Shown: positions 30,777-52,080, counted from the first letter of the stretch. The stretch: 64,000 bases of DNA from Bacteroidales bacterium (GCA_017535325.1 JAFXUC010000045.1:3169-67168); one strand, 5' to 3'. Notes: generated from the letters alone by a model not told the origin. A program made the numbers and translations.

Positions 30777-30779
30777 AAA

Positions 30780-31187: not shown

Positions 31188-31190
31188 ATG

Positions 31191-31242
31191 TTGGATTGCA
31201 GGCGGCTCGCCTGCTCTTTCCTTTATTGGTTTTGAACCGCAA
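31191..31242. repeat. hairpin repeat, copy B
   Basis: TTGGATTGCAGGCGGCTCGCCTGCTCTTTCCTTTATTGGTTTTGAACCGCAA, near-identical to 26181-26232. Confidence 0.85.
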
Positions 31243-31272
31243 GCATTGCGGCTCTACATACTTACAAAAAAA

Positions 31273-31325
31273 AGTTATCAACATTGTGTTGATAACTTTT
31301 GTAAAATTTTGAAAATAAATTAATT
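31273..31325. repeat. palindrome-containing repeat, copy 4
   Basis: AGTTATCAACATTGTGTTGATAACT (one substitution in the spacer) followed by TTTGTAAAATTTTGAAAATAAAT. Confidence 0.85.
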
Positions 31326-31935: not shown

Positions 31936-31993
31936 TTCTTTTATGTGTTTAATTATTTAATTAATATGTTTTAAAATTCTAACTTTAAATTAT

Positions 31994-32404
31994 TTATCTA
32001 ATACTAACATTTCTTGAATACACTACTGTATTACCACTGCTCACGATTATATCATAATCGCCTTCGCCGTAATCTTTAAGTATACAACTAAATGTTGTAC
32101 CACCACCAGCAGTAATGCCGGTTACTTTTGCACCATTACAAAACACTTCTACTGTACTGTCCTCAGAGTATTGAGAAAAATACACTGTCAAAATAGTTGA
32201 CGATTCATCGTAGGACACGTGTACTGTCTCTTGGTGTTTATATTTACGACAACCATGCGGACGTCCTATTCTCCAATGACCACCATCTTGTGAGTTCGAT
32301 CCTGCTGTATTACAACAAACATTGCGTTGTCCATAACTTTCTGTTGATAAAACTGAGATTGCCGTAATAACCATCGGCAAAACATAATACTTTTTTATAT
32401 TCAT
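31994..32404 (-). CDS. small secreted Ig-like protein (DUF3244-like), paralog 2
   Basis: Signal peptide, then VSYDESSTILTVYF..STVEVFCNGAKVTGI..TTFSCILKDYGEGDYDIIVS. Confidence 0.65.
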   Translation of the reverse strand: MNIKKYYVLPMVITAISVLSTESYGQRNVCCNTAGSNSQDGGHWRIGRPHGCRKYKHQETVHVSYDESSTILTVYFSQYSEDSTVEVFCNGAKVTGITAGGGTTFSCILKDYGEGDYDIIVSSGNTVVYSRNVSIR

Positions 32405-32606
32405 TTTATTATATTTTTTTGTTTTTCACGCTGCAAAATTATAAACACAAACACCTACAAACCAAATTTTCCCCGTGTTAACTTCCCTTTACTGATATAA
32501 TTAAAATCTTGATAATTAATATTTTCCGCTCAGCGGAAGGTATATCTTCCGTGTAAAAAGGAAGATTTTTGTATTTTTTTATTTGCATTTCTTCATAGAT
32601 TTTTTT

Positions 32607-32614
32607 TATATTTG
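32607..32614 (+). promoter_or_regulatory. -7 box TATATTTG upstream of TPR-TM-HTH regulator 2
   Basis: Exact TAnnTTTG match 26 nt before the ATG at 32640. It lies inside the tracked TTG-extended ORF, which argues for the 32640 start. Confidence 0.5.
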
Positions 32615-32639
32615 CATAAACTTTTACATTGAAATAAAT

Positions 32640-37164: not shown

Positions 37165-38328
37165 TTACTTGATTCTGTATCCGCCGATTAATACATCGTC
37201 AATTTGTGGAAAATTCCCGCGCCACTGAGTTAAAAAATCGTCCAATTTTTGCGACTGTTCTTCTCCTGAAAATTCTGAAAACGAACTTAGCAACTCTTTG
37301 AAACGCTTGTATGTTACCTTGCGCATTGTAGAGCCGCTGAACTGGTCTGCAAAACCGTCTGAAAACATATACAACCAATCACCGCTTTCAACCTCTATTT
37401 CTTCTGTTTCAAAACTTTTTGGTTTCGGGTGATAGCCTATTGGATTTTTAACGGCTTTATATTCCGTTAATTCGCCTTTTCTTACAAGGTACAAAGGATT
37501 GTTGCCGCCGGAAAACCGCAGTTTTTTGGTTCTTAAATTCAGAATGCAAAGAGCCATATCCATACCGTCCTGAGGTTCTTTTTCGTTAACGTCTTGACTG
37601 AGTGCGCCGGTAATGCAGGTTCTGAGTTTTTCCAAAACCTCTGACGGCAAAGTGTTTTCGTCTAAGTCTATGCAAATGTCGTTCAAAAAAGTGATTCCTA
37701 AAAGACTCATAAATGCACCCGGAACACCGTGTCCTGTACAGTCTGCAACTGTAAACACCAAATTTTCGCCCGAAAGTTTCATCCAATAAAAATCGCCCGA
37801 AACGATTTCTTTCGGCCTCCAAAACAAAAAGTAGTCAGCAAAATTATGTTTTAGAATCTCTTTCGAGGCTAAAACCGCCAACTGAATCCGCCGCGCATAT
37901 CGTATGCTGTCGGTTACGGAGCGGTGTTTTTTTTCGATGTCGGCTTTTAAGGCGGAAATATGTTCTTTTTCTTTTTGAATCAGCAGCGACATATCCCAAA
38001 GCCGCTTGTTTTTCTCGGAAAATTCTTCTTTTTCCTGAGCCAACTTTTTTTGCTCCATCAAGAGGGTATTGGCATCAACGGAAAAAGTCTGAATGTCTGC
38101 TTTAACGGTTTTTACGGGTTCGGCTTTTGAGGTTTTGAGGTTTTCGTAAAGTGTTTTTTCGCGTTCAAGTGCATCTTTATAAATGCGTATTTCTTCTTTG
38201 AAGCGGTTTTCGACGCGTTTTGCGGCTTTTGCTTTGGCGATATGAATCCTGCGGCGGATTACTACGGCGTAAAAAAACGCGCAAATCGCCAAAATTATCA
38301 AAATAATATGTAAATAATCGAGTCTCAA
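37165..38328 (-). CDS. membrane-anchored PP2C/SpoIIE-family protein phosphatase (cassette copy 2)
   Basis: N-terminal TM helix (HIILIILAICAFFYAVVI then RRR), coiled coil, then YARRIQLAVL, SGDFYW, VADCTGHGVPGAFMS, DGMDMA and MFSDGFADQF. TTG start overlaps the upstream TGA (TTGA). Confidence 0.85.
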   Translation of the reverse strand: MRLDYLHIILIILAICAFFYAVVIRRRIHIAKAKAAKRVENRFKEEIRIYKDALEREKTLYENLKTSKAEPVKTVKADIQTFSVDANTLLMEQKKLAQEKEEFSEKNKRLWDMSLLIQKEKEHISALKADIEKKHRSVTDSIRYARRIQLAVLASKEILKHNFADYFLFWRPKEIVSGDFYWMKLSGENLVFTVADCTGHGVPGAFMSLLGITFLNDICIDLDENTLPSEVLEKLRTCITGALSQDVNEKEPQDGMDMALCILNLRTKKLRFSGGNNPLYLVRKGELTEYKAVKNPIGYHPKPKSFETEEIEVESGDWLYMFSDGFADQFSGSTMRKVTYKRFKELLSSFSEFSGEEQSQKLDDFLTQWRGNFPQIDDVLIGGYRIK

Positions 38329-39650
38329 TTTATTTGCAGTTTTTCTAACGATGAAACATTATAAACGTAAATTCTGTTGCCCAAACCGATGTTGTTGATG
38401 TTCATATTTACCGCCGATTCGGAAGAAATTCTTGACATGAAGACATCGTAGCCGCCGTTGCCGTCTTTGAAACAAGCGTAACATGCTATTCCGTCATCAT
38501 AGTCAAGGCGCACATATTTTTGTATTGTGCCGTCAAGTGATACCACCGACAAAACGCCCGTCATGCTGCCCACCATTTTTAGGAGTGCCGACATTGTGGT
38601 GATTGACGACGCGCCGCTGACTTCGATACCGGCAAAATAGATTTCGTTGTCTATTTTCATGGCGTTTGAAAAAAAGGCGTCGGTCGTGGGGACGCGGATA
38701 TATTCGCTGCCGTTTTCGTCCAAAACCAAAGCGCATGTGCCGGTGTTGTCAACGGCTGAGATGTAGGCGTATTTGCTGTCAGGCGCAAAAATGTACGGGG
38801 AATAGTCTATCGCCGAACTGTTGATTTGCTGTCCGTCAAGCGAGAAAATTTTCAAAAAATAATATCCGTCGGCGTTGGTGTAGTAGATAAAAATATTGTT
38901 GTTTATCGAGCAGGTTTCTACGATGCTGATAGTTTCATCAAACGCCAAATCCGTTTCGTGTTCTGTTTTGCCTTCATTGTTTATGTATCTTAACCTCAAA
39001 TCGTAAGAGGTGTTTTGCTGCATCATTCCTTGGTTCGGCACTTGAAATATCATAGCGTAACCGCCGTTGTCCAAGGGAGTTCCGTTGACGGGGATTTTGC
39101 TGACGGAATTGTTTGCTCCGCCGCCCATTCCGCCTCCTCCGCCGTTCATCATATTGACGGTGCTGTCGAGTTGAAAAAGTTTTTGTCCGTCTTTGTCAAA
39201 TTTTACGACAGCGTAATATGTGCGTCCGAAATTGTTTGAGGAGTAAAATTCAAAATAAAACTCGTCGTTGGCGTTTTTGCGGACTGTACCGGCAGAGACG
39301 TCAACTTTTGTCTGCATTTCTGCGGCAGACTGTTTTGAGATGTCTTCTCGGTTTTTGTCTCCGGGGTTGTCTCCGTTATTGTTTACGGGGTTGCGCACAG
39401 ACTCGTTCCAAGAAAGCGCAAAAGTTGTTTTGGTGATTTCGGCGTTGCGGTCTATTTTTACGAAATTGTAGTTCAGCGTGTCGTGTTCGGAGGTGATGGT
39501 GATTATCGAACCGTCAGAGCACGCAACGGGAAAAAACATCGGCGAAACCTCAACCGATTTTACCGGCGAAGCCTCGTAATCCGAAAAAACTGTTTCGTTT
39601 TCGCACGAAAACAAAAACAGAAGTACTGATATGAATAATGCCTTTTTCAT
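38325..39650 (-). CDS. hypothetical lipoprotein (cassette copy 2)
   Basis: Lipobox LLFLFSC, beta-rich, internal Gly run (NGGGGGMGGG). C-terminus YVYNVSSLEKLQIN resembles that of the 45156 paralog. Confidence 0.6.
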   Translation of the reverse strand: MKKALFISVLLFLFSCENETVFSDYEASPVKSVEVSPMFFPVACSDGSIITITSEHDTLNYNFVKIDRNAEITKTTFALSWNESVRNPVNNNGDNPGDKNREDISKQSAAEMQTKVDVSAGTVRKNANDEFYFEFYSSNNFGRTYYAVVKFDKDGQKLFQLDSTVNMMNGGGGGMGGGANNSVSKIPVNGTPLDNGGYAMIFQVPNQGMMQQNTSYDLRLRYINNEGKTEHETDLAFDETISIVETCSINNNIFIYYTNADGYYFLKIFSLDGQQINSSAIDYSPYIFAPDSKYAYISAVDNTGTCALVLDENGSEYIRVPTTDAFFSNAMKIDNEIYFAGIEVSGASSITTMSALLKMVGSMTGVLSVVSLDGTIQKYVRLDYDDGIACYACFKDGNGGYDVFMSRISSESAVNMNINNIGLGNRIYVYNVSSLEKLQIN

Positions 39651-39664
39651 AATTTTCTTTTTTG

Positions 39665-40735
39665 TTAATAACCGTAACCGTATTTGGCTATTATGCCGTA
39701 GCCAAAATTTATTTTAACGCCCACACAGATATTTGTAAAACTGAAACTTATCGCATCCGGTACAAACAACTTGTTGTAAACCAGATTGTTGTCAGAATAA
39801 TTGTATTCAGGATTGTTGTGCGGTTTCAGCATTGCGGTTTTGGTAAAATCCGCGAAAACGGATATGCGGTTGTAATTTCTGCTGATTCTAATCCGCGAAC
39901 TTATTGCGCCGTTTATGCGGTTTTTGGTTTTTAAGTCAATGCTGCTTTTTATGAAGTTGTTTTGCTGCGTGTTGATTGCGTTGTATGCCTCGTAGTCCGC
40001 TTTCATGATAAAGTTGAGTTCGCCGCCCAAGAAAATTTCGGGAGTCCATTTGCCGAGGTCGAAAGCGTAACCGACATAGAGCGGAATTGCGCCAAAATGC
40101 ACCGATTCTTTGTAAACAAAATTGTAGTCGACATTCATGAGCCCTGTTTCCCCGTTTTTTGACAGCGTCCTTGAATATTGCGCAAAACGGTATTTTATGC
40201 CGGTTAACACGGAAAGCGTTTTTATCGGACGGTATTGCAGCGAAAAGTCAAACGTATAGCCGATAATATCCTCGTAGGAGGGTTCGTTTTCTTTGTTTTC
40301 GCCGACAACATGGACGGTGTCAACTGAGATTTTCGGAGCGCAGATTCCCGCCGAAAAGCCGACAGAAAACTTCGGGTATGCATGATAATTCAAAAATATT
40401 TCCTTAAAAGGCAGCGGGTCTTCTGTTACGGTTTCGTAAAACGGATTTTTTGTGACAAACGTTCTTACAAGCGAATCCGCTTCTGACTCAAATCCCGACT
40501 CCCTTAAAACCGACGAATAATATTTCAGATATTCAGAATAGTTTTCAGAACTGAGTTTGCCGTTTTGACGGATTTGTTCGGCGGTTTTGCGCGCGTCGAA
40601 GTATTTGCCGGCATTGTAAAATCTTTTTAAGTCAAAAAGCAACATTCCGGCAGTGTCGGTTTGTGCCTTTGCGTTTAAAGCACAAACCGAAGTAACAACA
40701 GTCAAGATTAATATTTTCAATGTTTTATATCCCAT
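39665..40735 (-). CDS. secreted protein with helical N-domain and beta-barrel-like C-domain ending KYGYGY (cassette copy 2)
   Basis: Signal peptide ...SVCALNAKAQ, an N-terminal region of about 100 aa that looks helical or TPR-like, then alternating beta pattern and an aromatic C-terminus. An alternative ATG at 40750 would overlap the NTPase stop. Confidence 0.55.
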   Translation of the reverse strand: MGYKTLKILILTVVTSVCALNAKAQTDTAGMLLFDLKRFYNAGKYFDARKTAEQIRQNGKLSSENYSEYLKYYSSVLRESGFESEADSLVRTFVTKNPFYETVTEDPLPFKEIFLNYHAYPKFSVGFSAGICAPKISVDTVHVVGENKENEPSYEDIIGYTFDFSLQYRPIKTLSVLTGIKYRFAQYSRTLSKNGETGLMNVDYNFVYKESVHFGAIPLYVGYAFDLGKWTPEIFLGGELNFIMKADYEAYNAINTQQNNFIKSSIDLKTKNRINGAISSRIRISRNYNRISVFADFTKTAMLKPHNNPEYNYSDNNLVYNKLFVPDAISFSFTNICVGVKINFGYGIIAKYGYGY

Positions 40736-40736
40736 A

Positions 40737-43700
40737 TCAAAAATCATCAATATTAGAAAACTCTTTGCCTAAAATCAGTTCTTTTTCTGCCGGTGTCAGC
40801 GGCTTAGGATGCATTTCTGAAAGTATTGCGGCATATTTGTTAATGTCGGTATACCAAAAGCGCACCTGATTGTCTTCTGTCAGAGCGAAAACCGTGCCTA
40901 AGGAATTGAAAGCCGCCGATTTTACCTTGCCTTTGAGACTGTGCTCTTCTATGCTGACGATTTTGCCGTTTTTGATGTCGGCGGTGTTGATAAGCGCAAT
41001 TCTCTTGTCCGCGCTTGCCACGGCAAGAAAACCCGTTTTGGAATCGTAGCACATTTTTTCTATTTGGACGTGTCCTCCGGTGCGGCTTGCCACAACAAGG
41101 TCGGTTGTCATATTCAAAAATTTTACGTTGCCGTCGGCAAAAGAGACCGCCAAAAGGTTTTTGTCGGGAATTGCCTCCAACGCAAAACCGAAATTCTGAC
41201 CTTCTTTTTCAATGAGGATTTTTTTCTCGCCGGTTTTATAATTCCATTTCAAAAGTCTGCCGTTGTGCTGCAAAATGTAGATGCCGTTGTTTGTGGGATA
41301 AATTCCGGTTATTTTGTTTCCGAAATTCGCCTCGGTTATCGGTTTGTCCTTTGGTCTGGTCGGTATGGTGATGATAATCCGTCCGTCCGTAAAACCCAAA
41401 ATAAGAAGCAAATTGTCAGGCAGCATTACCGCCTGAGACAGATAGCCTTTTTGCTTTTCAAGATTGAATACGGTTCCCGATTCTATGTCAACAAAAAACA
41501 AATTTCGGTCTTTTGTTGACAAGACCGCCGTAAACCCGGAAGTAAACAGTGCGCGTTCAACAAGCGTTTTCCCTTCAAAGGCTTTTATGGATTTTGTGTT
41601 TTTTGCCTTGTTTTCCTTTAAGTCGTAAACATTTACAGTGCCGTCTTCGCTTACGATTTCTATTTTGTCGGAAGCGTTTATGCGGAAGGCGGACATTCTT
41701 TCGGGAAGTTTGCTGAGGGTATTTTTAAAAGGTGTCTGCTCAACGGCGTAAAGCATTGCGTCATAAAGGATTGCGTCGTTTTGCTTGTCCTTGTTGGTTT
41801 CGTTCATTTTATATGCCGCCCACGCGAGTTTGATATTGAGGTCCTTGTCCTCGTACTGGTTTTTGGCGTTCATGGCAAGCATGTTGCAAAGAGTTATGTT
41901 ATAAAGCCGTGCGGCTGAATCGCTCGCAATTTTTGCTTTCATTTCCTCCTCTTTGGCTTTTTGCTCTTCCTCCTGGGCTTTTTTGCGCTGTTCTTCGGCG
42001 ATGGTAAGATTTTTTTCCGCCTCCAAACGGCTGGCATTTGCAAAGGCAAAGGCAGTGTTGGCGCGGTTCAAAGCCTCCTGCGCGGCAAGTTTGGCTTTAC
42101 GGGCTTCTTCCGCCTCGCGCTGTGCGTTGCTTTTTTCCACCTGCGCCTGAATGTTGGCCTGGTCGGCAATGCCGCGCTGCTGTTCGGCGAGTTCTCTTTG
42201 ACGCTCGGTCGCGATTTTCTGCTTTTCGGCACGGTCTCTTTCTTCGTTTGCAGAGGATTTTTCCATCAACGCCCACGAGGTAAAACCTGCCATTGTCAGC
42301 AGGAAAAATGCGATTGCGACAAAAATAACTTTCATGCGGCGTTTTCTTGCCTGTTCTTTTTCCAAAAGCGCGTTGTGGCTTTCCTCCAAATAGTCGGTAC
42401 AGTCTTCAAAATGCGCAACAGCCTTTTTGCGTTTTTCCTGTTCCGAAATTTTGCTTGTATCATAACGCGCTATCCAATAAGGATTTGGACGTGATTTGTT
42501 GTACCAGTCATTGAAGTAGTTGTAAGAGCCGCTTGTCAGAAGAAACTCCGGACTTTTATCTTGGGAGAGCCAGCGCGAGACTTGCGAGTTGAAGTCGTGA
42601 TAATCCTTTGCGTTGCTTTCCATTTGTGCTCCCCACTGAGCGAACATTTTCCAGTTACGGATAAGAGCCTCATGCGTGATGTCCAACACCGTGTCGCCGC
42701 TGAGATATTGCGTTTCAAGTTCTCCGTCCTCGATAAAGGGCCGCAAAAGCGTGTTGTCAGGACTGCGGAAAATATTCAAAACGCCGCAGACCGTGGCGTT
42801 TGTGATGTTTTCTTTTCCGATGATGCCCGTGATTTCGTCTACGGTGCAGCGGTTTCTTACCGGACGGTTGTTGTCTATTTTGACGAGCGACTTAAATGCC
42901 GCCTCGATGATTTCCTTGCTTTCCTCATTCGTGATTGATTTTTCAGCCCAAGGAGCGTTTTTTTGAAAATAATCGAAAGCCGATTCGTAGAGAATACCGG
43001 CATGGGCGTTCAAAACGTTGTTCAAATCGGGCTTTTCAAAATATTTTTTTTCGTAGTCGGGGCGCATGGCAAACCACTTGTCGAACTCTTTTCTTTCGCC
43101 GCCCGACAAAACCTCTTTTGAAATGCCGGCAATTTTTGCCAAATGTATCAAATCCAACTCTTTCTGACCGTTGTCAGCCATTTTCCAAAGAAGATGGAGC
43201 GCGTGCTGCAAAACCGGCAACTGGTCAAAACCGTTGTTAAGGTTGTTGACAATCACTTCTCTCAGACGGTCGGAAACTTTTCCGCCGGCAAGCGCGGCAG
43301 GCTCTTCGATAACCTGGCAGATTTCGGTGCGTTTTAACTGCGGCACAAAAAACTGCGAATATGCGATAAATTCGGGAAGGTTTTTAAAAACCGTACATTG
43401 CGAAATAAAGTCGCTGCGCATCGTAAAGATGACGTAGACGGGAAGGTTTTCCGTTACGGCAATTCTGACGGTTTCAAGCAAAAGATTTATAGCCGTGTAA
43501 CTTTCTTCGCTCGGCTCTCCGTCATTAAAATTGTCAGAATTTGTAAAAACTTCCTCAAACTGGTCGGCGATTATCAGCAGGTTTTTGCCCTGATTGGCAT
43601 CTTCGGCATAAAATCCGTGTCTTTTATAAAGGTCAACGACCGACGAAAAACCGTTGTCAAGTTCTGATAAAAAGTCAGAATAATCAGCATTCATTTGCGT

Positions 43701-43988
43701 TGCCAACGCTTCTGCGAGTGATGCTAACGGGTTTCGTTGCGGCTTGAAGTCGGCAATAATCCAAGAATTGAAATCGGCTTTGAAAAATCCGGCACGTATA
43801 TACGGCACAACTCCGGCATAAACCATTGACGACTTTCCGTCGCCGGACGCGCCGGTTATAAACGCCATTTTGTTTTCTTCCAAGAGTTTTACAATCTGGC
43901 GTATATGCAAATCCCGCCCTTTGAAGAAGATTGACTCTTCCTCAGTAAAAGGTCTTAAACCGGGATATGGACAAATGCCTCGTTTCAT
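40737..43988 (-). CDS. STAND-like P-loop NTPase with TM helix, coiled coil and C-terminal WD40-like beta-propeller (cassette copy 2)
   Basis: CPYPGLRPFTEEESIFFKGRD...AFITGASGDGKSSMVYAGVVPYI (Walker A), LLIIADQFEEVFT (Walker B). TM helix VIFVAIAFFLLTMAGFTSWAL preceded by RKRRMK. About 130 aa rich in A/E/K/Q. Blades such as LAVSFADGNVKFLN, LAVASADKRIALIN and FALTEDNQVRFW. Confidence 0.8.
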   Translation of the reverse strand: MKRGICPYPGLRPFTEEESIFFKGRDLHIRQIVKLLEENKMAFITGASGDGKSSMVYAGVVPYIRAGFFKADFNSWIIADFKPQRNPLASLAEALATQMNADYSDFLSELDNGFSSVVDLYKRHGFYAEDANQGKNLLIIADQFEEVFTNSDNFNDGEPSEESYTAINLLLETVRIAVTENLPVYVIFTMRSDFISQCTVFKNLPEFIAYSQFFVPQLKRTEICQVIEEPAALAGGKVSDRLREVIVNNLNNGFDQLPVLQHALHLLWKMADNGQKELDLIHLAKIAGISKEVLSGGERKEFDKWFAMRPDYEKKYFEKPDLNNVLNAHAGILYESAFDYFQKNAPWAEKSITNEESKEIIEAAFKSLVKIDNNRPVRNRCTVDEITGIIGKENITNATVCGVLNIFRSPDNTLLRPFIEDGELETQYLSGDTVLDITHEALIRNWKMFAQWGAQMESNAKDYHDFNSQVSRWLSQDKSPEFLLTSGSYNYFNDWYNKSRPNPYWIARYDTSKISEQEKRKKAVAHFEDCTDYLEESHNALLEKEQARKRRMKVIFVAIAFFLLTMAGFTSWALMEKSSANEERDRAEKQKIATERQRELAEQQRGIADQANIQAQVEKSNAQREAEEARKAKLAAQEALNRANTAFAFANASRLEAEKNLTIAEEQRKKAQEEEQKAKEEEMKAKIASDSAARLYNITLCNMLAMNAKNQYEDKDLNIKLAWAAYKMNETNKDKQNDAILYDAMLYAVEQTPFKNTLSKLPERMSAFRINASDKIEIVSEDGTVNVYDLKENKAKNTKSIKAFEGKTLVERALFTSGFTAVLSTKDRNLFFVDIESGTVFNLEKQKGYLSQAVMLPDNLLLILGFTDGRIIITIPTRPKDKPITEANFGNKITGIYPTNNGIYILQHNGRLLKWNYKTGEKKILIEKEGQNFGFALEAIPDKNLLAVSFADGNVKFLNMTTDLVVASRTGGHVQIEKMCYDSKTGFLAVASADKRIALINTADIKNGKIVSIEEHSLKGKVKSAAFNSLGTVFALTEDNQVRFWYTDINKYAAILSEMHPKPLTPAEKELILGKEFSNIDDF

Positions 43989-43992
43989 TTTT

Positions 43993-45159
43993 TTATTTTA
44001 TCTGATACCCGCCGACAAGTACGTCATCGAGTTGCGGCATTGTACCGCGCCACTTAGTTAAAAAACTGCTTAACCTTTCGGATTGCAACTTGCCCGGAAG
44101 TGCTGAAACCGATGTCAGCAACTCCCTGAATTTTTTGTACGTTAATTTGCGGTTTCCGCCGCCGAACTGGTCTGAATAGCCGTCAGAGAACATATAAATC
44201 CAGTCGCCGGACTGGACATCTGCTTCCGCAGTTTCAAACGGACGCACAAAAACATACGAACCTATCGGATTTTTTACAGGTTTATATTCCGTTAATTCGC
44301 CGTTGCGGATTAAGTACATGGGATTGTTGGCACCCGCAAAGCGCAGTTTGTTGGTTTCTAAATTCAGAACGCAAAACGCCATGTCCATACCGTCGTCCTG
44401 CTTGCCGAAAGTGTTGTCCTGACTCAGTGCCCGTATAATGTCAGCCCGCAACTTTTCCAAAACTTCGCTCGGCTGGGTGTTTTCGTCCAAGTCTTTGCAA
44501 ATCTCGTTCAAAAACGTTATGCCCAAAAGACTCATAAACGCGCCCGGAACACCGTGTCCCGTACAGTCGGCAACCGTAAACGCCACTATGTCGCCCTGAC
44601 GTTTCATCCAGTAAAAGTCGCCCGAAACTATGTCCCTCGGACGCCAAAAAAGAAAGAAATCCGCAAAACTGAGTTTCAAAATCATTTTCGGAGGCAAAAC
44701 CGCCAACTGAATCCGGCGTGCATAACTTATACTGTCTGTTACCGAATGGTGCTTTTCCTCAATGTCGTTTTTCAAAATTTCGATATGCTCCTTCTCTTTT
44801 TGAACCGCCAACGACATTTCCCAAAGTTTTTTGTTGCGCTCGGTGATTTCGCTTTTTTCTATTTCAAGTTTTTGCTGTTCGAGAATGATTCTTTCTGCGG
44901 TTTTAAAGACCTCGTCCGCCGAAATATTGTCGTTGTCAGGCAGAATTTTGGGCTGATTAGCCGGCTCGTTTTTAAGATTTTCGTAAAGCGTTTTATAACG
45001 CAGAACCTCGTCCGAGGAAAAACGGATCTGACGTTTCAAATCCTTGTTTGCCTCGAATACAGCCGTTCTTGCCGCTCTGCGCCGCGTTAAAAAGAAATAA
45101 ACCGCCGCCAAAACCGCCAAAACAAGCAAAATTATAAGTATATAGTCTAATGTTGTCAA
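43993..45159 (-). CDS. membrane-anchored PP2C/SpoIIE-family protein phosphatase (cassette copy 1)
   Basis: Same architecture and motifs as 37165-38328, and the same TTGA start/stop overlap with the upstream lipoprotein gene. Confidence 0.85.
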   Translation of the reverse strand: MTTLDYILIILLVLAVLAAVYFFLTRRRAARTAVFEANKDLKRQIRFSSDEVLRYKTLYENLKNEPANQPKILPDNDNISADEVFKTAERIILEQQKLEIEKSEITERNKKLWEMSLAVQKEKEHIEILKNDIEEKHHSVTDSISYARRIQLAVLPPKMILKLSFADFFLFWRPRDIVSGDFYWMKRQGDIVAFTVADCTGHGVPGAFMSLLGITFLNEICKDLDENTQPSEVLEKLRADIIRALSQDNTFGKQDDGMDMAFCVLNLETNKLRFAGANNPMYLIRNGELTEYKPVKNPIGSYVFVRPFETAEADVQSGDWIYMFSDGYSDQFGGGNRKLTYKKFRELLTSVSALPGKLQSERLSSFLTKWRGTMPQLDDVLVGGYQIK

Positions 45160-46496
45160 AGTTCAAGTTTTTTTAAGTCGTCGGTCTGATAAATGTGAAA
45201 TTTATTAGACCAGACATCAGAAGCCGTGTTTCCGGTTACGTCCTCGGGACGCAACTCCTTATAATAAACAGTATAAATGCCGTTTTCGTACCAAACACCG
45301 TGTATTGCAGTTGAGTTCTGTCCGCGCATATTAAACAACTCGCCGTCCTTGATTATAAAACCGTCGCACTGTTCGGCGGTGTATATGTATTCAGCAGAGT
45401 ATGACCCTGTATATTTTTTCTTGCAATAACCGTACAAAAATTCACTGCCGCCACATTCAGTTCCGCCAAGGATGTAATAAGTAGAATCCGTGCCTTGAAT
45501 CGGTTTTATTTCACTCTCAGGGTAGACAAGTCTCTCGTAACTGTATGTTCCCGTAACAGAAACTACCGAAGAGCCGTTCTCGTTGACTTCTATTGTGTCT
45601 GTATTGGTTTTCAGATGCAGCATTACGGTTGCGAGACCGGTATATACCGCCTTTGAACTAACGTAGTCGTCAGCCTCGGTGCCATACTGCTCTGTTTTGC
45701 CCTCTGTAGAAACTGCTATCGTACTGCGTGTTCCTTTGTCGTTGTTGAAGTCGATAAAAACCATATTGCCGCTCGAATATGCACGGAAAACGTAGCCTTC
45801 GTTGTTGATTTCTGCCGGACATTTGTTTTCAATACTGCCGTCAGGGGCAAGAGTCATGATTTCCCATTCGTCGGGTGTCACTTCGCCTGTGTACCAGTCA
45901 TTCTTACCCTCTTTGAAAAACAAAACCGCAAAACGTCCGCCGCTGAGAGGCGCACCGAATTTAGGAGCGAGAGACCCGTTTCCGCTGTAATAGTCACCCG
46001 TGTTGTATGCCGCGCAGTGTTTGTAGATGACGTTGCAGTCTTTGTCGAACCTTATGACGCAGAGTTCCGAGATTCCGGCGTGATTGCGCGACGACCCTAT
46101 TCCGAAACTGAAAAAACCGCCGTCGTCGGATTTGTAAATGTCCTGTACGCTTATATAATGGCGGAGGTCGCCTTTTACCTCGTCAAAATTGTCTATGTTG
46201 CCGTTAATCCATTCGGGTTCTATGTGGACGAGTTCCTTTGTACCGTTTTGATTTATTATCACAAGGCGGGAATCCGAGGATTCTTCATGCCAGCCCGTTT
46301 GTCCGTATTCAAAGCCGATTAGACGTCCGTTTATGACCACCGGGTATACGTTGTTGTCAAGTTGGACGGTTTTTACAGGCTGAGTATTGCTGAGCGTGTC
46401 AACAAACACTCCGCCGTCCATAAGTATGCCGCCGTCCTTGCAGCCGGAAATCAAAATCAAAGCCGATAATATGACAATCAATTTTCTCATAATCAA
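45156..46496 (-). CDS. hypothetical lipoprotein (cassette copy 1)
   Basis: Lipobox ALILISGC, beta-rich, C-terminus HIYQTDDLKKLEL. A distant paralog of 38325-39650. Confidence 0.6.
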   Translation of the reverse strand: MIMRKLIVILSALILISGCKDGGILMDGGVFVDTLSNTQPVKTVQLDNNVYPVVINGRLIGFEYGQTGWHEESSDSRLVIINQNGTKELVHIEPEWINGNIDNFDEVKGDLRHYISVQDIYKSDDGGFFSFGIGSSRNHAGISELCVIRFDKDCNVIYKHCAAYNTGDYYSGNGSLAPKFGAPLSGGRFAVLFFKEGKNDWYTGEVTPDEWEIMTLAPDGSIENKCPAEINNEGYVFRAYSSGNMVFIDFNNDKGTRSTIAVSTEGKTEQYGTEADDYVSSKAVYTGLATVMLHLKTNTDTIEVNENGSSVVSVTGTYSYERLVYPESEIKPIQGTDSTYYILGGTECGGSEFLYGYCKKKYTGSYSAEYIYTAEQCDGFIIKDGELFNMRGQNSTAIHGVWYENGIYTVYYKELRPEDVTGNTASDVWSNKFHIYQTDDLKKLEL

Positions 46497-46503
46497 TTCC
46501 TTT

Positions 46504-47679
46504 TTAATATCCGTACCCGTATTTCGGAAGTGTCCGGTAAAACATATTTATTTTTACCCCGAAACTCAGCGAAATCTGGTTGAGCCGCATAGCGTCGGGT
46601 ACAAACAAGTGGTTTACAGCGAGTTCGGGATTTTTGTATTTGTCTTCTGGTTTTCTGAGTTCCTTGGTTGCAAAACCGTAAGACAGCCCCGCAAAAGCGC
46701 AGAATCTGTGGTACTCGTAGTTGAGTCGTATGCCGCCGTAAACTGTCATAAAACGTGATTTCTGATCTTTGAACCTTCCCTCGCAATAAACAGAGTCAAG
46801 ACGTTTGTTCTCAACGACTTCAGACCGCTTTAAATCTTTTATGCTGTAAGTGCTTTCATAAAAGACAGAGTATTTTATTCCGGCAAAAATCTCCGGTCTT
46901 ACAACGCCGTAAACCGCGGGCGCAATATAGGAGACCTCTGCCGGAATACTGAAAAACTTGTCTTTTTCAGTATAAGAGAAATGTACGTTTTCTCCGGCTT
47001 CAAGTCTTGTGTAAGAAAATTTTGAAAAGGCGAATCCGCCGGAGAGCGACACATTTTCAAACGGGTAAAACACCGCCTGAATTTCAGAAGACGAGGCTTT
47101 GAAATTCGAGTATATGTATTTTCCGTCCTTTGCCCTTACCGTATAGACAGTGTCAAGTACAACTATCGGGTAAACTTTTGATATTGTAACCTTTACGCCG
47201 AAAACAGGACGTGATATAAAATTCTTTTTGAGGCTGACAAAAGCCACAGGGTCGTCGTCTTTAATTTTGTAAAACGGAGCCTGACGGCAAAAAATTTTCA
47301 TCAGAGAGTCGGAGGTTTTTCCGTAGCCCATTTCTTTTAACGAGGCGATAGCGTATTTGTGAAAATCCTCTTTCTGCTGTTTCGATAGTTTTTCCTCATA
47401 TTGTCTTCCCTTGATGACAAAAGCCTTTTCGAGCGATTCCCTGAAACGTCCTGAATTGTAAAGCGTTTTTAAGTTTTCGATTACGATATCGATGTTTTTT
47501 GTGGAGTCGTCGGCGGAAACTGTCTTGAATTTTCCGTTGAAATTCTCCGGCAGAGCCTCCTCCGGCGTTGTCAGATTGTCGAAAAGGGGAATGTAGCCGT
47601 CCGGTTTTGAAGTGTCTTTCTGTGCAAAAACTTCTAAACAGACGGTCAGAAAAAATGCTATGAGAATTGTCTTTTTCAT
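46504..47679 (-). CDS. secreted protein with helical N-domain and beta-barrel-like C-domain ending KYGYGY (cassette copy 1)
   Basis: Signal peptide MKKTILIAFFLTVCLEVFAQ (start set at ATG 47679; the tracked start is 47733). Same C-terminal PKYGYGY as the copy-2 paralog. Confidence 0.55.
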   Translation of the reverse strand: MKKTILIAFFLTVCLEVFAQKDTSKPDGYIPLFDNLTTPEEALPENFNGKFKTVSADDSTKNIDIVIENLKTLYNSGRFRESLEKAFVIKGRQYEEKLSKQQKEDFHKYAIASLKEMGYGKTSDSLMKIFCRQAPFYKIKDDDPVAFVSLKKNFISRPVFGVKVTISKVYPIVVLDTVYTVRAKDGKYIYSNFKASSSEIQAVFYPFENVSLSGGFAFSKFSYTRLEAGENVHFSYTEKDKFFSIPAEVSYIAPAVYGVVRPEIFAGIKYSVFYESTYSIKDLKRSEVVENKRLDSVYCEGRFKDQKSRFMTVYGGIRLNYEYHRFCAFAGLSYGFATKELRKPEDKYKNPELAVNHLFVPDAMRLNQISLSFGVKINMFYRTLPKYGYGY

Positions 47680-47767
47680 AAAGGACAAAAGTATAAAAAA
47701 AATGACAGCCGTGAAAATATATTGCAAAAACAAGGCAAAATTTCACTTTTTTTAAAAAAAAGTTTTA

Positions 47768-47775
47768 TAATTTTG
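47768..47775 (+). promoter_or_regulatory. -7 box TAATTTTG upstream of the DUF3990-like gene
   Basis: Exact TAnnTTTG match 32 nt before the ATG at 47807. Confidence 0.4.
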
Positions 47776-47806
47776 TTAGATTTATTAATTTTGGTAAATT
47801 TGCGTT

Positions 47807-48268
47807 ATGGAAACGATTTTGATATATCACGGCAGTAATATAGCCGTTCAGAAACCGAAAATTCTGGTCAGTGGTTTTTATAAAGATTTTGGATTCGGAT
47901 TCTATTGCACCCGTTATGAAAAACAGGCGCAACGCTGGGCTCTCAGTAAGAATGGCGGCGGTATAGTTTCAGTTTATGAATATACCGGAGGGGCTGAGTT
48001 GAATATTCTGAGGTTTGATTCCATGACCGATGAATGGCTGGATTTTGTGGCAGACTGCCGGCGAGGTCTTGAACATTCATACGATATTGTAGAAGGTCCG
48101 ATGGCTGACGACCAAATTTGGGATTATGTTGAGGATTTTGCCTCCGGCAGTATTTCCCGTGAGGCGTTTTGGGCTTTGGCAAAATTCAAATATCCTACCA
48201 ACCAAATTGTCTTTACCACAGAAACTGCTTTAAAATCAATAATTTTTAAAAAATCTTACTCGTTATGA
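47807..48268 (+). CDS. DUF3990-like protein
   Basis: ILIYHGSN...P......KDFGFGFYCT...QAQRWA and DIVEGPMADDQI patterns recalled from the DUF3990 family. From memory, not searched. Confidence 0.55.
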   Translation: METILIYHGSNIAVQKPKILVSGFYKDFGFGFYCTRYEKQAQRWALSKNGGGIVSVYEYTGGAELNILRFDSMTDEWLDFVADCRRGLEHSYDIVEGPMADDQIWDYVEDFASGSISREAFWALAKFKYPTNQIVFTTETALKSIIFKKSYSL

Positions 48269-48735
48269 AAAATGTTTTCTTTCCCGATGAGGACATCACG
48301 GAAAATGACTTGTATTTTGTCTGTTACATGATAGAAAAAGTTTCCCGGCAGATTAAGCAGCCGAATAAATACGCTGTCAACCAAATGGGGTATGACGAAT
48401 TGTCGAAAAAACTCTCTTCGGCAAGTGTTCTTCATTGTCAGAACCCGCTGCAAACCGCCGCAGAATGGATTGAGGAATTTTCATTGGAAAAAGGAACTTT
48501 CGACGTTTCTGCCGTCAATCCTTATTACTGTGAAAAAATTCCGACTGAAACTCAAATGGGAAAAGTTTATAAACGCTTGGTTTTGGATACAATGCCGTTT
48601 GAAGAGGATTATGCTCAGGCTATAATCCGCGTTTACAACAACGAAATTTGCAAAACCATTGACAACTATAATTGCAGTGCGTATTACGAACCCTCACCGT
48701 ATATCGCAAGAAGTTATTTTGCGGGAGGTTTTTGA
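48265..48735 (+). CDS. DUF3791-like protein
   Basis: ATGA-overlapped partner of the DUF3990-like gene. The LYFVCYMIEKVSRQ...VLHCQNP pattern resembles DUF3791, the usual neighbour of DUF3990. Confidence 0.5.
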   Translation: MKNVFFPDEDITENDLYFVCYMIEKVSRQIKQPNKYAVNQMGYDELSKKLSSASVLHCQNPLQTAAEWIEEFSLEKGTFDVSAVNPYYCEKIPTETQMGKVYKRLVLDTMPFEEDYAQAIIRVYNNEICKTIDNYNCSAYYEPSPYIARSYFAGGF

Positions 48736-48747
48736 TTTTTGGGGAGG

Positions 48748-51700
48748 TTACAGTCCTCCTGCGAACTCCCGTCCCAAAACCATTTTCTTTTCATCGCTTG
48801 TAAGAGGTTGCAGGTTAAGAGTCTGCAAGGATTTGGCGTATTGTTTTATGTCGGTGTCCCAATAAAGAATTGAGTTGCGGCCGGTCAGCGCGAAAACCAT
48901 GCCTTTGGAATTGAATCTCAAAGTGTTGGCTCTGCCGCCGCGCAAATTCTGCTCCTCAATAAAATAAGGCTGCGAAACATAGTTGTTGACATCAACAACC
49001 GCAATTCTTTTGTCGCTGCCAGAAAGTGCCAAAAGTCCCGTCCCTGAATCGTAGACCGCATGCTCAAACTTTGAAGGTCCGTAAGTAAACTCGCCAGTAA
49101 GAGTCCCCGTCAGAGTGCTGACAAGGCAGACTAAGCCGTTGCCGTAACAAACCGCCAAAAGATTCTTGTCCCTTAAATCCGCAAGCGCGAAAGCGTTGGG
49201 ATAGCGGTAAGTCTTTTTGAAAACTGTCGTGGTGTCGCCCGTTGCGGAGTTCCATTTAACAAGTGCGCCAGAATGTAACAGAACGTAATAGACATCGGGG
49301 TCGGAAGATGTACACACACCGATGATTTTACGGTTGAAGTTGTAGCCTGTAAACGCGCCTTTTTCAGGAAGTTGCGCATCGTAGACAAAAACGTTTCCGT
49401 TGTCAAAGCCTGTGATAATGCGCCGTCCGTCGTCAGAAAGCGCGCTTGCGTTTATGTATCCAGAGGGTTTCAACTGCGAAACACTGCGGTCTTGAATGTC
49501 CGTCACAAAATTTCTTCCGTCAAGACAACTGCAAAGAAAATATTTGTCGTTTAGAAAATACGCAGAAAGAACCGGTATGGAGTTTTCCGAGGCTTTTATG
49601 CGCATAAATTCCTGCGGACGGTCGCCGGAAATTTTGTAACCCGCAATCTCGCCTTTGTCAGTTGCCGTAAAGAGGCGGTTTTGAGAGTCAACGTAAAAGT
49701 CCGAAATGTCGGCGTCGTTGATTTTCAGTGAGTTGTCGAATCCGTTTTCGTGCATTGCGCAGACCATTGCCGCGTAAATTTCGGGCGTGTTTTCTGTTAT
49801 CTCAAACTCCTTGTTGATAAGCCATGCCGACCACGCAAGACGGAGGTTCATGGACTTGTCTTCGTAACGGTTTTTTGCTTTCATGGCAAGGGCATTTGAG
49901 ACGGCGATATTGTAGAGCCGTGCCGCGCTGTCTGAGGCTTTGTCGGCTTTCAATGTCTGCTCCTCCGCCAAAAGACGGGCTGTTTCCGCCTCTTGACGCG
50001 CTTTTTCCGCAATGTCAAGATTGTGCAGAGCCTGGTCTTTCATGTCGTCGGCAAGGATACGGGCAGCGTTTGCCGATTCGTAGGCGGAGAGAGCCTCAGC
50101 CTTCGCTTCCTGCGCTTTCAGAGCCTCAGCAACCGCTTTTTGACGCTCTGTCTCGGCTCTTTTTTCGGCATCAACGGCACGCTCTTTTTCTTTCTTGTTG
50201 AGAGCAGCCTGATTTTCAGCCTCCAATGTTTTTTCTGCGGCAAGTTTGGATTGTGCCTGCGCCGTGTTTCTTTCTTCTAACGCCCAAATAGCAAAACCCG
50301 TCAGGAAAATTAATGAAACCGTGATTAACGTACCGATTATACGGTTTTTACGTTTCTTTGCTTTTTGTGCCGCTTCAACTGCGCTGCGGCTTTCGGTGAT
50401 AAAATCTTTGCAGTTTTTCGCCAAAACGTCCGCTTTTTTCAGTTTGTCGTTGAGAGGCAGTTTGCTGGTGTCTGATTTTGAAAGCCAAAACGCATTCGGT
50501 CTGACACGCGTGTACCACGTTTCAAAGTATTTAAGGTTGCCCGCCGGAAGAAGGAATCCCTGTTTTCTGCCGTTAGACTCCCAACGTGTCATCTGTATTT
50601 TAAAATCGTGAAAATCCCTCGTATCGTTAGCCTCTTCGGTGTTCCAATGTTCGAGTTTTTTCCAGTTACGGATAAGAGCCTCGTGCGTGATGTCAAGCAC
50701 CGTGTTGCCGCTAAGATATTGGGTTTCAATATCTTCCGTTTCGATGAACGGGCGCAAAAGCGTGTTGTCGGGACTGCGGAAAATATTCAAAACGCCGCAG
50801 ACCGCAGCCGTTGAGACATTCTCCTTGTTGATAATTCCGGTGATTTCGTTGAGCGTGCAACGGTTTCTTACCGGGCGGTTGTTGTCAATTTTGACCAGAG
50901 ATTTAAAAGCCGCCTCAATGATTTCCTTGCTTTCCTCGCTCGTGATTGATTTCTCTGCCCACGGAGCGTTTTTTTGAAAATAATCGTATGCAGATTCGTA
51001 GAGAATACCGGCATGGGCATTCAGAACGTTGTTCAAATCGGGCTTTTCAAAATATTTTTTCTCGTATTCAGGACGCTTGGAAAACCACTCGTCAAAGTCT
51101 TTCCTTTCTTCAACAGAAAGAACGTTCCTTGAAATTCCCGCAATCTTTGCCAAGTGGATAAGATCTAACTCTTTTTGTCCGTTGTCAGCCATTTTCCAGA
51201 GCAAGTTGAGCGCGTGCTGCAAAACCGGCAACTGGTCAAAACCGTTGTTTAAGTTATTGACAATTACTTCCCTGAGACGGTCTGAAACTTTTCCGCCTGC
51301 AAGAGTAGCCGGTTCTTCGATGACCTGACAGATTTCGTTTCGTTTTAGTTGCGGAACAAAAAACTGCGAATAAGCGATAAATTCAGGCAGGTTTTTAAAA
51401 ACTGTACACTGCGAAATAAAGTCGCTTCGCATCGTGAAAATGACGTAGACGGGAAGGTTTTCTGTTACGGAGATTCTGACGGTTTCAAGCAGAAGATTTA
51501 TAGCCGTGTAACTTTCCTCGCTCGGCTGTCCGTCGTTGAAATTGTCAGAATTTGTAAAAACTTCCTCAAACTGGTCGGCAATGATAAGAAGATTTTTTCC
51601 GTTGTTAGGGTCTTTGGCATAAAAGCCGAGTTTTTTATAAAGGTCAACAACCGACGAAAAACCGTTGTCAAGTTCTGCTAAACATTCCTCATAATCGGCA

Positions 51701-52002
51701 TTCATTTGTGTTGCTAACGCTTCTGCGAGTGAGGCTAACGGGTTTCGTTGCGGCTTAAAGTCGGCAATAATCCAAGAATTGAAATCTGCTTTGAAGAATC
51801 CCGCGCGGATATAAGGCACAACACCTGCGTAAACCATTGAAGACTTTCCGTCGCCGGACGCGCCGGTTATGAAAGCCATCTTGTTTTCTTCCAAGAGTTT
51901 AACTATCTGACGTATATGCACGTCCCTTCCCTTGAAGAAGATAGACTCTTCCTCAGAGAACGGTCTCAGACCCGGATATGGACAAATGCCTGACTGCTTC
52001 AT
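48748..52002 (-). CDS. STAND-like P-loop NTPase with TM helix, coiled coil and C-terminal WD40-like beta-propeller (cassette copy 1)
   Basis: Same N-terminal motifs as 40737-43988. TM helix IIGTLITVSLIFLTGFAIWAL preceded by KAKKRKNR, an A/E/K-rich coiled coil and a WD40-like C-terminus (LAVCYGNGLVCLVS, LALSGSDKRIAVVD, FALTGRNSILYW). Confidence 0.8.
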   Translation of the reverse strand: MKQSGICPYPGLRPFSEEESIFFKGRDVHIRQIVKLLEENKMAFITGASGDGKSSMVYAGVVPYIRAGFFKADFNSWIIADFKPQRNPLASLAEALATQMNADYEECLAELDNGFSSVVDLYKKLGFYAKDPNNGKNLLIIADQFEEVFTNSDNFNDGQPSEESYTAINLLLETVRISVTENLPVYVIFTMRSDFISQCTVFKNLPEFIAYSQFFVPQLKRNEICQVIEEPATLAGGKVSDRLREVIVNNLNNGFDQLPVLQHALNLLWKMADNGQKELDLIHLAKIAGISRNVLSVEERKDFDEWFSKRPEYEKKYFEKPDLNNVLNAHAGILYESAYDYFQKNAPWAEKSITSEESKEIIEAAFKSLVKIDNNRPVRNRCTLNEITGIINKENVSTAAVCGVLNIFRSPDNTLLRPFIETEDIETQYLSGNTVLDITHEALIRNWKKLEHWNTEEANDTRDFHDFKIQMTRWESNGRKQGFLLPAGNLKYFETWYTRVRPNAFWLSKSDTSKLPLNDKLKKADVLAKNCKDFITESRSAVEAAQKAKKRKNRIIGTLITVSLIFLTGFAIWALEERNTAQAQSKLAAEKTLEAENQAALNKKEKERAVDAEKRAETERQKAVAEALKAQEAKAEALSAYESANAARILADDMKDQALHNLDIAEKARQEAETARLLAEEQTLKADKASDSAARLYNIAVSNALAMKAKNRYEDKSMNLRLAWSAWLINKEFEITENTPEIYAAMVCAMHENGFDNSLKINDADISDFYVDSQNRLFTATDKGEIAGYKISGDRPQEFMRIKASENSIPVLSAYFLNDKYFLCSCLDGRNFVTDIQDRSVSQLKPSGYINASALSDDGRRIITGFDNGNVFVYDAQLPEKGAFTGYNFNRKIIGVCTSSDPDVYYVLLHSGALVKWNSATGDTTTVFKKTYRYPNAFALADLRDKNLLAVCYGNGLVCLVSTLTGTLTGEFTYGPSKFEHAVYDSGTGLLALSGSDKRIAVVDVNNYVSQPYFIEEQNLRGGRANTLRFNSKGMVFALTGRNSILYWDTDIKQYAKSLQTLNLQPLTSDEKKMVLGREFAGGL

Positions 52003-52021: not shown

Positions 52022-52029
52022 TCAAATAT
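52022..52029 (-). promoter_or_regulatory. -7 box TATATTTG (minus strand) upstream of cassette copy 1
   Basis: Plus-strand CAAATATA, 19 nt upstream of the NTPase ATG at 52002 and downstream of the gpmI terminator. Confidence 0.4.
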
Positions 52030-52048
52030 AGTTTACCCCAAAATATAT

Positions 52049-52080
52049 GCCAAAAAGGCTGCCGGATATAAAGGCAGCCT
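52049..52080 (-). terminator. rho-independent terminator after gpmI (minus strand)
   Basis: 9-bp stem AAGGCTGCC / GGCAGCCTT. On the minus strand it is followed by TTTTTGG. Confidence 0.6.

Follow-up and report, generated by a model that had tools for sequence, protein, structure and literature searches.

A putative envelope-spanning signalling module of the Bacteroidota, with a STAND sensor and a PP2C output, in two anciently duplicated copies

A stretch of 64,000 nucleotides from a Bacteroidales bacterium (GCA_017535325.1, JAFXUC010000045.1:3169-67168), referred to here at its full length as the window, carries a four-gene cassette twice between positions 37,165 and 52,002. Each copy encodes an nSTAND1 NTPase (N), an outer-membrane beta-barrel protein (B), a lipoprotein (L) and a PP2C phosphatase (P). 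The listing of open reading frames gives eight intact genes that run co-directionally on the minus strand in the order N-B-L-P, twice over, as an earlier note made from the sequence alone had described. By a modest balance of probability, the two cassettes are anciently duplicated, co-diverging copies of an undescribed envelope-spanning signalling module of the Bacteroidota, in which a STAND sensor would control a PP2C output. In relatives the system is usually accompanied by a fifth gene, U, which encodes a DUF4062/TIR-like protein. The duplication itself is far beyond chance, with blastp matching B1 to B2 at E=2e-33 and L1 to L2 at E=1e-6.

Composition and topology of the cassette

The first gene of each cassette, N1 (48748..52002, minus strand) or N2 (40737..43988, minus strand), encodes a protein formed of an nSTAND1 NTPase (residues 1-450), a juxtamembrane segment, a single transmembrane helix (about 554-573), a helical stalk and a WD40-like propeller. 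N2 has the same architecture as N1, with a sensor region of type B in place of type A. Both N-termini read ...CPYPGLRPF.EEESIFFKGRD and are followed by the Walker A motif GASGDGKSS and the Walker B motif LLIIADQFEEVF, so that the motifs picked out in the earlier note are present in both copies. Its assignment of these proteins to the nSTAND-type STAND NTPases is likewise upheld by PF20703 (nSTAND1), which scores 227.3 bits with N1 (6e-67) and 221.0 bits with N2 against a Pfam gathering cut-off of 27.1, and whose match begins at profile position 1, equivalent to residue 7-8 of N. In a twelve-sequence alignment (A4) the motifs GASGDGKSS (residues 46-54) and LLIIADQFEE (residues 137-146) are invariant. 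The same holds for TMRSD (with R191) and T438-H439-E440, where the roles of a sensor arginine and a winged-helix histidine would follow from position only.

Six Lys/Arg residues precede the transmembrane helix of N in the analysis of hydrophobicity and charge bias, and hence the NTPase is predicted to be cytoplasmic and the stalk and propeller periplasmic. Independently of charge bias, the C-terminal half of N can be placed in the periplasm because a LysM domain is found at the C-terminus of two relatives in which U is fused to N (46 and 55 bits, cut-off 20.9). The set of N homologues comprises 85 distinct full-length proteins, gathered by scanning GTDB genomes and metagenome contigs and by looking up single proteins. 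Family-wide, N is 1082±8 residues long with its transmembrane helix at 553±6.5, and the distance from this helix to a stalk motif is 118±1.7 residues in the 23 members that bear the motif. This suggests that the periplasmic stalk, with some 120 residues of near-invariant length, acts as a ruler. A PDB sequence search with an N profile shows the propeller to resemble bacterial WD40 proteins and the WD40 region of Apaf-1 (4e-21); the search reached the WD40 part only, and for the NTPase part no solved homologue came up. Proteins of a further length class, about 1,320-1,450 residues, are also matched by the family-specific N segment; like the Hymenobacter protein described below, they are nSTAND1 members with a transmembrane helix, and their C-terminal region is longer and different.

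The phosphatases P1 (43993..45159, minus strand) and P2 (37165..38328, minus strand) have an N-terminal transmembrane helix, a charged helical linker and a PP2C/SpoIIE domain. The earlier note had read them as a transmembrane helix joined to such a domain, and PF07228 (SpoIIE) agrees in both copies, at 68.5 and 70.1 bits for the two proteins (1e-18 for P1 and 3e-19 for P2; cut-off 25). In the alignment to PDB 6K4E (1.4e-30 with P2) all of the metal-binding motifs (GDFYW, DCTGHG, SDGF.DQ and DDV) are matched, and DxxGHG is kept in 71 of the 79 P proteins of the family. Judged by its motifs, P is a catalytically intact PP2C of the SiaA/RsbU type. It would nevertheless not be SiaA itself, since the NCBIfam SiaA equivalog NF038263 gives only partial matches of 158-164 bits (158 bits for P1) against a cut-off of 700, over the C-terminal 270 profile positions alone. 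The transmembrane helix of P is followed by 5-7 Lys/Arg residues, which places the PP2C domain in the cytoplasm, and a helix with such a positive-inside bias is found in 73 of the 79 proteins.

The two remaining proteins belong to the outer parts of the envelope. B1 (46504..47733, minus strand) and B2 (39665..40750, minus strand) are composed of a signal peptide with an invariant A-Q cleavage motif (alignment A1), a TPR-like helical domain and an outer-membrane beta-barrel ending in KYGYGY; homologue alignment indicates that the true start of B1 is probably the internal ATG at 47679. An AlphaFold2 model of B2, built from a twelve-sequence alignment, has four helices forming the TPR-like periplasmic domain and then an eight-strand barrel (predicted local distance difference test, pLDDT, 76), for which Foldseek returns OmpT, Ail, OmpX, OmpA and OmpW (E about 1e-6, probability 1.0). 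Both B proteins of the window lie below the cut-off of Pfam PF13568, which some homologues reach; some homologues are annotated as outer membrane beta-barrel protein. A signal peptide is present in 56 of 57 B proteins across the family. The lipoproteins L1 (45156..46496, minus strand) and L2 (38325..39650, minus strand) belong to one family, L1 being extremely divergent. Their lipoboxes read LISGC and LFLFSC (Cys16 in L2), with a cysteine that is invariant in alignment A2, and in all 49 proteins at the L position a cysteine follows a hydrophobic stretch. The AlphaFold2 model of L2 is a beta-propeller (pLDDT 75, predicted template-modelling score 0.76), and Foldseek searches of PDB and BFVD gave generic propellers only, with no functional lead. 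The signal peptide, helical N-domain and beta-rich C-domain ending in KYGYGY claimed for B, and the lipoprotein nature of L, are hence confirmed by alignment, model and lipobox. The proposed distribution over cytoplasm and inner membrane, periplasm and outer membrane also stands, on the combined grounds of charge bias, signal peptide, modelled barrel and lipobox.

The packing of these genes is tight in part. The TTG start of P1 overlaps the stop codon of L1 as TTGA, the L2/P2 junction is built likewise, and P1 and N2 are separated by 4 nt, all of which fits the very tight packing that had been claimed. The claim fails at the N1-B1 spacing of 1,014 nt, which is occupied by two plus-strand genes.

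Conservation and the fifth gene of relatives

Co-occurrence of the four families outside this genome, on which the earlier note had made its proposal depend, is widespread. Among the 59 loci with enough downstream sequence, the four co-directional genes that follow N include P in 54 and B in 38. The conserved core is N+P, and B and L are frequent accessories that can be optional or permuted (N-P only, N-P-B-L). The commonest gene orders are U-N-B-x-P, U-N-B-L-P, U-N-P-B-x-x and U-N-P, and the five-gene order persists down to 35-40% N identity, in contigs from outside the rumen. The 4-nt L/P and U/N overlaps are conserved, and a metagenome-assembled genome (MAG) typically holds two or three paralogous systems. 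At one metagenome locus (L046 5855-9641) three tandem paralogues of the L family lie between N and P, which shows that the lipoprotein can multiply independently of the other components.

The gene set had been said to fit no characterised signalling or anti-phage system, and three kinds of search bear this out. PADLOC-DB 2.0 gave no meaningful defence-model match for any of the eight cassette proteins or for U, NCBIfam held nothing specific for the eight proteins, and the searchable literature on nSTAND1, on STAND with PP2C, on transmembrane or periplasmic STAND proteins and on PDC-M10 contains no description of the set. A scan of IMG/VR found no relatives on viral contigs, a scan of phage records gave one weak partial match only, and matches on plasmids are other nSTAND1 proteins, except for a U-N pair from Hymenobacter. 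B, L and U are families without annotation that are abundant in rumen and gut Bacteroidales, to which the proposed system would give a role.

The protein U, of about 289 residues, is encoded immediately ahead of N in 54 of 71 loci, the two genes often overlapping by 4 nt. The 64-kb window has no U, and the best tblastn match there (E 0.013) is noise. DUF4062 is matched above its cut-off of 24.7 by the U protein of L092 (32.2 bits) and the U part of P0190 (34.3 bits), and TIR_2 by that of L100 (28.6 bits, cut-off 28); rumen-type U proteins, like most other members, stay below Pfam thresholds. When 1.84 billion representatives were searched with the family-specific N segment, six fusions with U at the N-terminus of N came up, which the U profile matches at E 9e-40 to 3e-7. 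Since it is either fused or translationally coupled to N, U occupies the position of a classical STAND effector. The tripartite STAND layout is thus present in relatives, by way of an adjacent or fused U, and absent from the window, where the N proteins begin straight at the NTPase and no U is found. The earlier statement that no TIR or other classical STAND effector is encoded consequently holds for the two cassettes of the window and not for the family, which usually has the DUF4062/TIR-like U.

DUF4062 has been described as a TIR-like NADase that needs a catalytic glutamate, and E-to-Q or E-to-A mutants of the published DUF4062 systems are inactive (bioRxiv 10.64898/2026.05.01.722283; 10.64898/2026.09.04.749371). 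Two independent weak alignments to PDB 10wc (E 0.016 and 0.31) place a conserved glutamine of U at E97 of KpSwz, the equivalent of E108 in PsAvs2, and the 68 U proteins compared have Gln at this position in 59 cases, Glu in 2 and His in 3. Because of this glutamine U is probably not an NADase, and the PP2C is indirectly favoured as the real enzyme of the system. U is more probably an adaptor, and would represent a natural, apparent pseudo-enzyme of the TIR-like/DUF4062 kind. Its second domain has the invariant residues D167, D180, W221, Q228 and W230 together with a GG pair.

U is also found in less usual settings. The closely related MAG RGIG1614 (L002 and L012), which has the same tandem cassettes as the window, encodes a solo U, with a third N-P pair lying 5 kb away. 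The U-N fusions P0190 and P0294 (L115 and L118) stand alone among housekeeping genes, one of them adjoining gyrB on 19 contigs, and may be a minimal self-sufficient form. On the Hymenobacter tibetensis plasmid NZ_CP094670.1 (L114 737-6651) a protein of 530 residues matches the U profile over residues 241-505 (2e-51), and its gene overlaps the start of a gene for a 1,440-residue nSTAND1 protein with a transmembrane helix near residue 581; there are no P, B or L genes nearby. The strain H. tibetensis KACC 21982 thereby offers a cultured entry point for the U-N pair. A TIR domain at the N-terminus of the 530-residue protein (EYDIFISYRHND, with a DIFISYRH motif) was considered and is not claimed, as Pfam and PDB searches lent it no support.

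Divergence of the copies and insertions between N and B

N1 and N2 are about 90% identical over residues 1-450 and about 35% identical beyond, and at the DNA level the 5' parts of the N genes are 86.6% identical over 1337 nt and the catalytic parts of the P genes 76.6% over 572 nt. Protein identity between the cassettes is 27% for B, about 21-25% for L and 62% for P. Across the twelve four-gene cassettes compared there are three sensor types, and in trees of the sensor regions the cassettes cluster by type with 100% support, type A uniting N1 with L002a, L006 and L008. Identity matrices for the N juxtamembrane segment, the propeller, B and the N-terminal anchor of P are congruent over these twelve cassettes (r=0.87-0.94), and remain so with the NTPase signal removed (partial r=0.82-0.89).

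The NTPase segment behaves differently from the rest of the cassette. Within it, synonymous divergence (dS) is 0.64-0.71 for paralogues within one genome versus 0.90-1.09 for orthologues, and in the remainder of N it is saturated between paralogues. Third-codon identity drops sharply at codon 450, with patches of 0.89-0.94 in L002. In our reading, gene conversion has acted here on the NTPase segment only. The locus L002 shares the iPGM...polA frame of the window, with flanks 97.5% and 92.5% identical to those of the window. Between the two, B1 is 50% and L1 34% identical, at a dS of 1.8-2.8 versus 0.5-0.7 in the flanks, which suggests that the ectodomain partners of cassette 1 have undergone allelic replacement. 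With dN/dS below 0.25 throughout and many dS near saturation, gene-wide positive selection is not supported. Domain-restricted gene conversion beside hypervariable partner genes would be an evolutionary pattern of general interest.

The two plus-strand genes that part N1 from B1 match a candidate defence pair, PDC-M10. The first (47807..48268) encodes a DUF3990, PDC-M10A-like protein of ADP-ribosyltransferase-like (ART-like) type (Pfam PF13151, 9e-48; PADLOC, 4e-73), and the second (48265..48735) a PDC-M10B-like protein (PADLOC PDLC04416, 1e-76) whose gene converges on the end of N1 and is no part of the cassette. The pair is missing from the syntenic L002, and a look for target-site duplications or repeats flanking the insert gave nothing convincing. 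In three other MAGs a Type IV methyl-directed restriction enzyme (PLD, ResIII and DUF3427; PADLOC 8e-199) lies at or beside the N/B junction of a type-A cassette (L008 3161-7241; L027 12121-15285; L029 11158-14093), and the junction of L008 also holds a PDC-S05/ORF6N gene. Since the window, L008, L027 and L029 all carry such inserts, the N/B junction appears to be a recurrent landing site for defence cargo. The association with defence is suggestive and is not proof of a defence role. The 3' end of the PDC-M10B gene (...FAGGF*, TTTGCGGGAGG on the plus strand; window 48716-48749) matches over 11 nt, in inverted orientation, the sequence that closes the N gene of both L002 and L006 (REFAGGL*). 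It sits 20-30 nt from the end of N1, and may reflect a shared hairpin or terminator, or chance.

The region upstream of cassette 1 (52023..52079, minus strand), as read from the sequence, contains the terminator hairpin of iPGM (52079-52057, with a T run after it) and then candidate promoter elements. These are a TTTG at 52054-52051 and a TAtaTTTG at 52030-52023, which we take to be of the Bacteroidetes type; the latter ends 21 nt ahead of the ATG of N1. A scan for sigma-70 promoters and terminators, which is uninformative for Bacteroidota, gave a sigma-70-like match at the same putative site, and no Rfam family or tRNA turned up when the region was scanned for them. Upstream of cassette 1, at a distance of two genes, lies a gene for a methyl-accepting chemotaxis protein (HAMP and MCPsignal; 53711-55492, minus strand), which is unusual for Bacteroidales, and a second one is found near a related locus (L033 1-460). 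Elsewhere in the window, a low-GC island at about 24900-34200 (GC 0.30-0.36 versus about 0.42-0.46 in the flanks) contains a PD-(D/E)XK transposase-like gene (24878-25843), a SocA/Panacea antitoxin (30186-30776) followed by an open reading frame of 135 codons (30780-31187), a small OMP_b-brl_2 barrel (31324-31935) and several small secreted proteins without a Pfam match.

Proposed mechanism, alternatives and known systems

In the mechanism that we favour, B and L would form a cassette-specific outer-membrane receptor, which the propeller of N would touch across the periplasm by means of its fixed-length stalk. Binding of a ligand, or a perturbation of the envelope, would be relayed through the transmembrane and juxtamembrane segment of N to promote nucleotide exchange and oligomerisation of the nSTAND1 domain. 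The oligomerised N would cluster the co-anchored P, and dimerisation of its coiled coil would turn the phosphatase on in the manner of RsbT and RsbU, so that P could dephosphorylate a phospho-Ser/Thr substrate encoded elsewhere. Activation of PP2C dimers through a coiled coil is established for RsbU (PMC12143880). The trans-envelope sensor of the earlier note, with a STAND switch and a PP2C output, is retained here as far as composition, topology and linkage go. It needs amending in that the core is N+P only, that U was left out and that cassette 1 is interrupted.

Several points weigh against this mechanism. U-N fusions occur without P, B or L, and N can evidently work without the phosphatase. 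Linkage alone can yield congruent divergence, and the NTPase tree unites the four copies of the window and of L002 with a bootstrap of only 53%. The models of B and L are of moderate confidence only (pLDDT 75-76, from 11-12 sequences), no linked gene for a substrate, a kinase, a STAS/SiaC partner or a sigma factor was seen in the window cassettes or the annotated related loci, and cassette 1 is split by an insertion, the equivalent N being fragmented in L027 and L029. Moreover, composition, topology, linkage and the divergence pattern are observed, and the steps of the mechanism are what we infer from them.

What the module might respond to is a separate matter. A fast-evolving external agent, such as a phage, a bacteriocin or a neighbouring cell, could well be the trigger, at somewhat short of an even chance, and this is somewhat likelier than a nutrient or stress cue, which has a lesser claim. 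An antagonistic trigger has in its favour an ancestry among nSTAND1 and TIR-like proteins, the hypervariability of the partners, the arrays of paralogues and the defence genes embedded in the locus. A physiological cue has in its favour the stable housekeeping context, the deep vertical conservation, the absence of relatives from viral contigs and the lack of a PADLOC match. It can be proposed, tentatively, that the cassette is an outward-looking immune receptor of the NLR/STAND kind. Its WD40 ectodomain would dock to the barrel and lipoprotein and sense phage adsorption, a bacteriocin or contact-dependent attack, the PP2C would provide the response beside a TIR-like partner that has lost its catalytic Glu, and the locus would evolve like an NLR cluster of plants, with gene conversion of the NTPase and allele-wise replacement of the ectodomain and its outer-membrane partners. 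To our knowledge, every characterised bacterial STAND/NLR-like system detects its ligand inside the cytoplasm, and the cell is then killed or arrested by a nuclease, NADase or protease. If the proposal were true, this would be the first immune receptor of the STAND/NLR type to face outward, with a PP2C in place of a nuclease or NADase, and the STAND paradigm would extend to envelope surveillance and reversible phospho-signalling.

The same hardware might instead sense a physiological variable, be it a nutrient, a glycan or the state of the envelope, each paralogue being adapted to its own ligand, much as in the hybrid two-component systems of Bacteroidetes that have periplasmic beta-propeller sensors; we regard this possibility as real yet doubtful. 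The stable position between housekeeping genes (iPGM/polA here and in L002, and elsewhere the dcw cluster, efp and nadA, with gyrB for a fusion), the seemingly vertical inheritance over deep divergence, the very conserved NTPase (61-93%), the uniformly low dN/dS (all <0.25) and the lack of IMG/VR and PADLOC matches all sit well with it. Such a sensor is harder to reconcile with the description of nSTAND1 in conflict systems (PMC8195603), with a DUF4062/TIR-like partner, with the defence genes embedded at the N/B junction of four genomes, and with B1 and L1 being only 50% and 34% identical between genomes whose flanks are 92-97% identical (dS 1.8-2.8 against 0.5-0.7). It is unlikely, though less so than the two readings that follow, that P is a reset or anti-toxicity regulator and that the true effector is U, encoded elsewhere in the genome, or its second domain, the window cassettes being sensors only that feed a shared U. 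Such an arrangement would suit the place of U ahead of N in 54 of 71 loci and its fusion in six representatives, the solo U that RGIG1614 encodes 5 kb from its third N-P pair, and the invariant residues of the second U domain. Homogenisation of the NTPase would keep paralogues compatible with one partner, and phosphatases dispensable for defence are known from Vesta and Metis (10.64898/2026.09.04.749371). Set against these points are the glutamine that 59 of 68 U proteins have in place of KpSwz E97, a change (E-to-Q, like E-to-A) that inactivates the published systems, the absence of a detectable U from the 64-kb window, and a P-N linkage that is as tight as that of U and N.

A structural machine of the envelope, serving as a tether or in biogenesis or motility in the style of Tol-Pal or gliding and energised by N as its ATPase, seems very improbable. 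It would accommodate the envelope-spanning layout, the length-invariant periplasmic stalk and the LysM domains of relatives, and the stalk has weak NCBIfam matches to FliL, VirB10 and GltJ (E 1e-3 to 3e-2); these are low-complexity coiled coil, far below the cut-offs. STAND NTPases, moreover, act as switches and not as motors, a housekeeping machine sits badly with the two to three diverged paralogues of each genome, whose ectodomains are hypervariable, and the PP2C would be left without a role. Scarcely any weight attaches to the view that cassette 1 is a decaying duplicate disabled by the PDC-M10 insertion, which does part N1 from B1-L1-P1 and converge on N1, and which has a parallel in the fragmented N of L027 and L029. 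All eight reading frames are intact with their catalytic motifs kept, dN/dS is 0.06-0.24, both cassettes are retained in L002, and in L008 an insertion of 4 kb at the same junction is flanked by an intact N and B-L-P.

No known system combines nSTAND1, PP2C, barrel and lipoprotein, and the closest are the Avs/NLR-like STANDs including PsAvs2. The Avs and bNACHT proteins, and especially PsAvs2 (DUF4062(NIR)-STAND-TPR), share with the cassette a P-loop STAND switch with a C-terminal repeat sensor, variable sensors joined to a conserved NTPase and, in cassette relatives, a DUF4062/TIR-like module at the N-terminal effector position. They differ in that the sensor of the cassette lies outside the cytoplasm, behind a transmembrane helix and a periplasmic stalk, that U has Gln in place of the catalytic Glu, that PP2C, barrel and lipoprotein are added, and that there is no PADLOC match and no N-terminal effector on the N proteins of the window. 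As a clear member of PF20703, N also resembles the nSTAND1 conflict systems (Kaur, Burroughs, Iyer and Aravind; PMC8195603, PMC7159879), which have been described in the context of bDLD3/EAD10, EACC1 and C-type lectin sensors diversified by diversity-generating retroelements. None of those, in contrast, has the transmembrane-stalk-WD40 architecture or a linked PP2C, barrel or lipoprotein.

The output side is closest to RsbU, SpoIIE and SiaA, as the catalytic domain of P, with its intact metal motifs, is nearest to PDB 6K4E and the NCBIfam SiaA family and the helical linker ahead of the domain resembles that of RsbU (PMC12143880). P is, however, far below the SiaA cut-off, the neighbourhoods examined hold no STAS/SiaC, kinase or sigma factor, and its input would be a STAND NTPase and not RsbT or a HAMP/periplasmic domain. 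Apaf-1 and the metazoan STANDs of the NWD1/TEP1 type (DUF4062-NACHT-WD40) follow a similar logic of a TIR-like/DUF4062 module, a STAND and WD40 repeats, underlined by the match of the N propeller to the Apaf-1 WD40 region (4e-21), but belong to another NTPase clade, whereas the cassette has an extracytoplasmic propeller and its components spread over several genes. Finally, among the trans-envelope signalling systems of Bacteroidota and Proteobacteria, those of the SusC-like/FecA and anti-sigma type and the hybrid two-component systems with periplasmic propellers likewise co-encode outer- and inner-membrane parts and have paralogues with divergent ectodomains. Unlike these, the cassette proteins include no TonB-dependent receptor, ECF sigma or anti-sigma factor, histidine kinase or receiver, and the cytoplasmic module is a STAND NTPase together with a PP2C.

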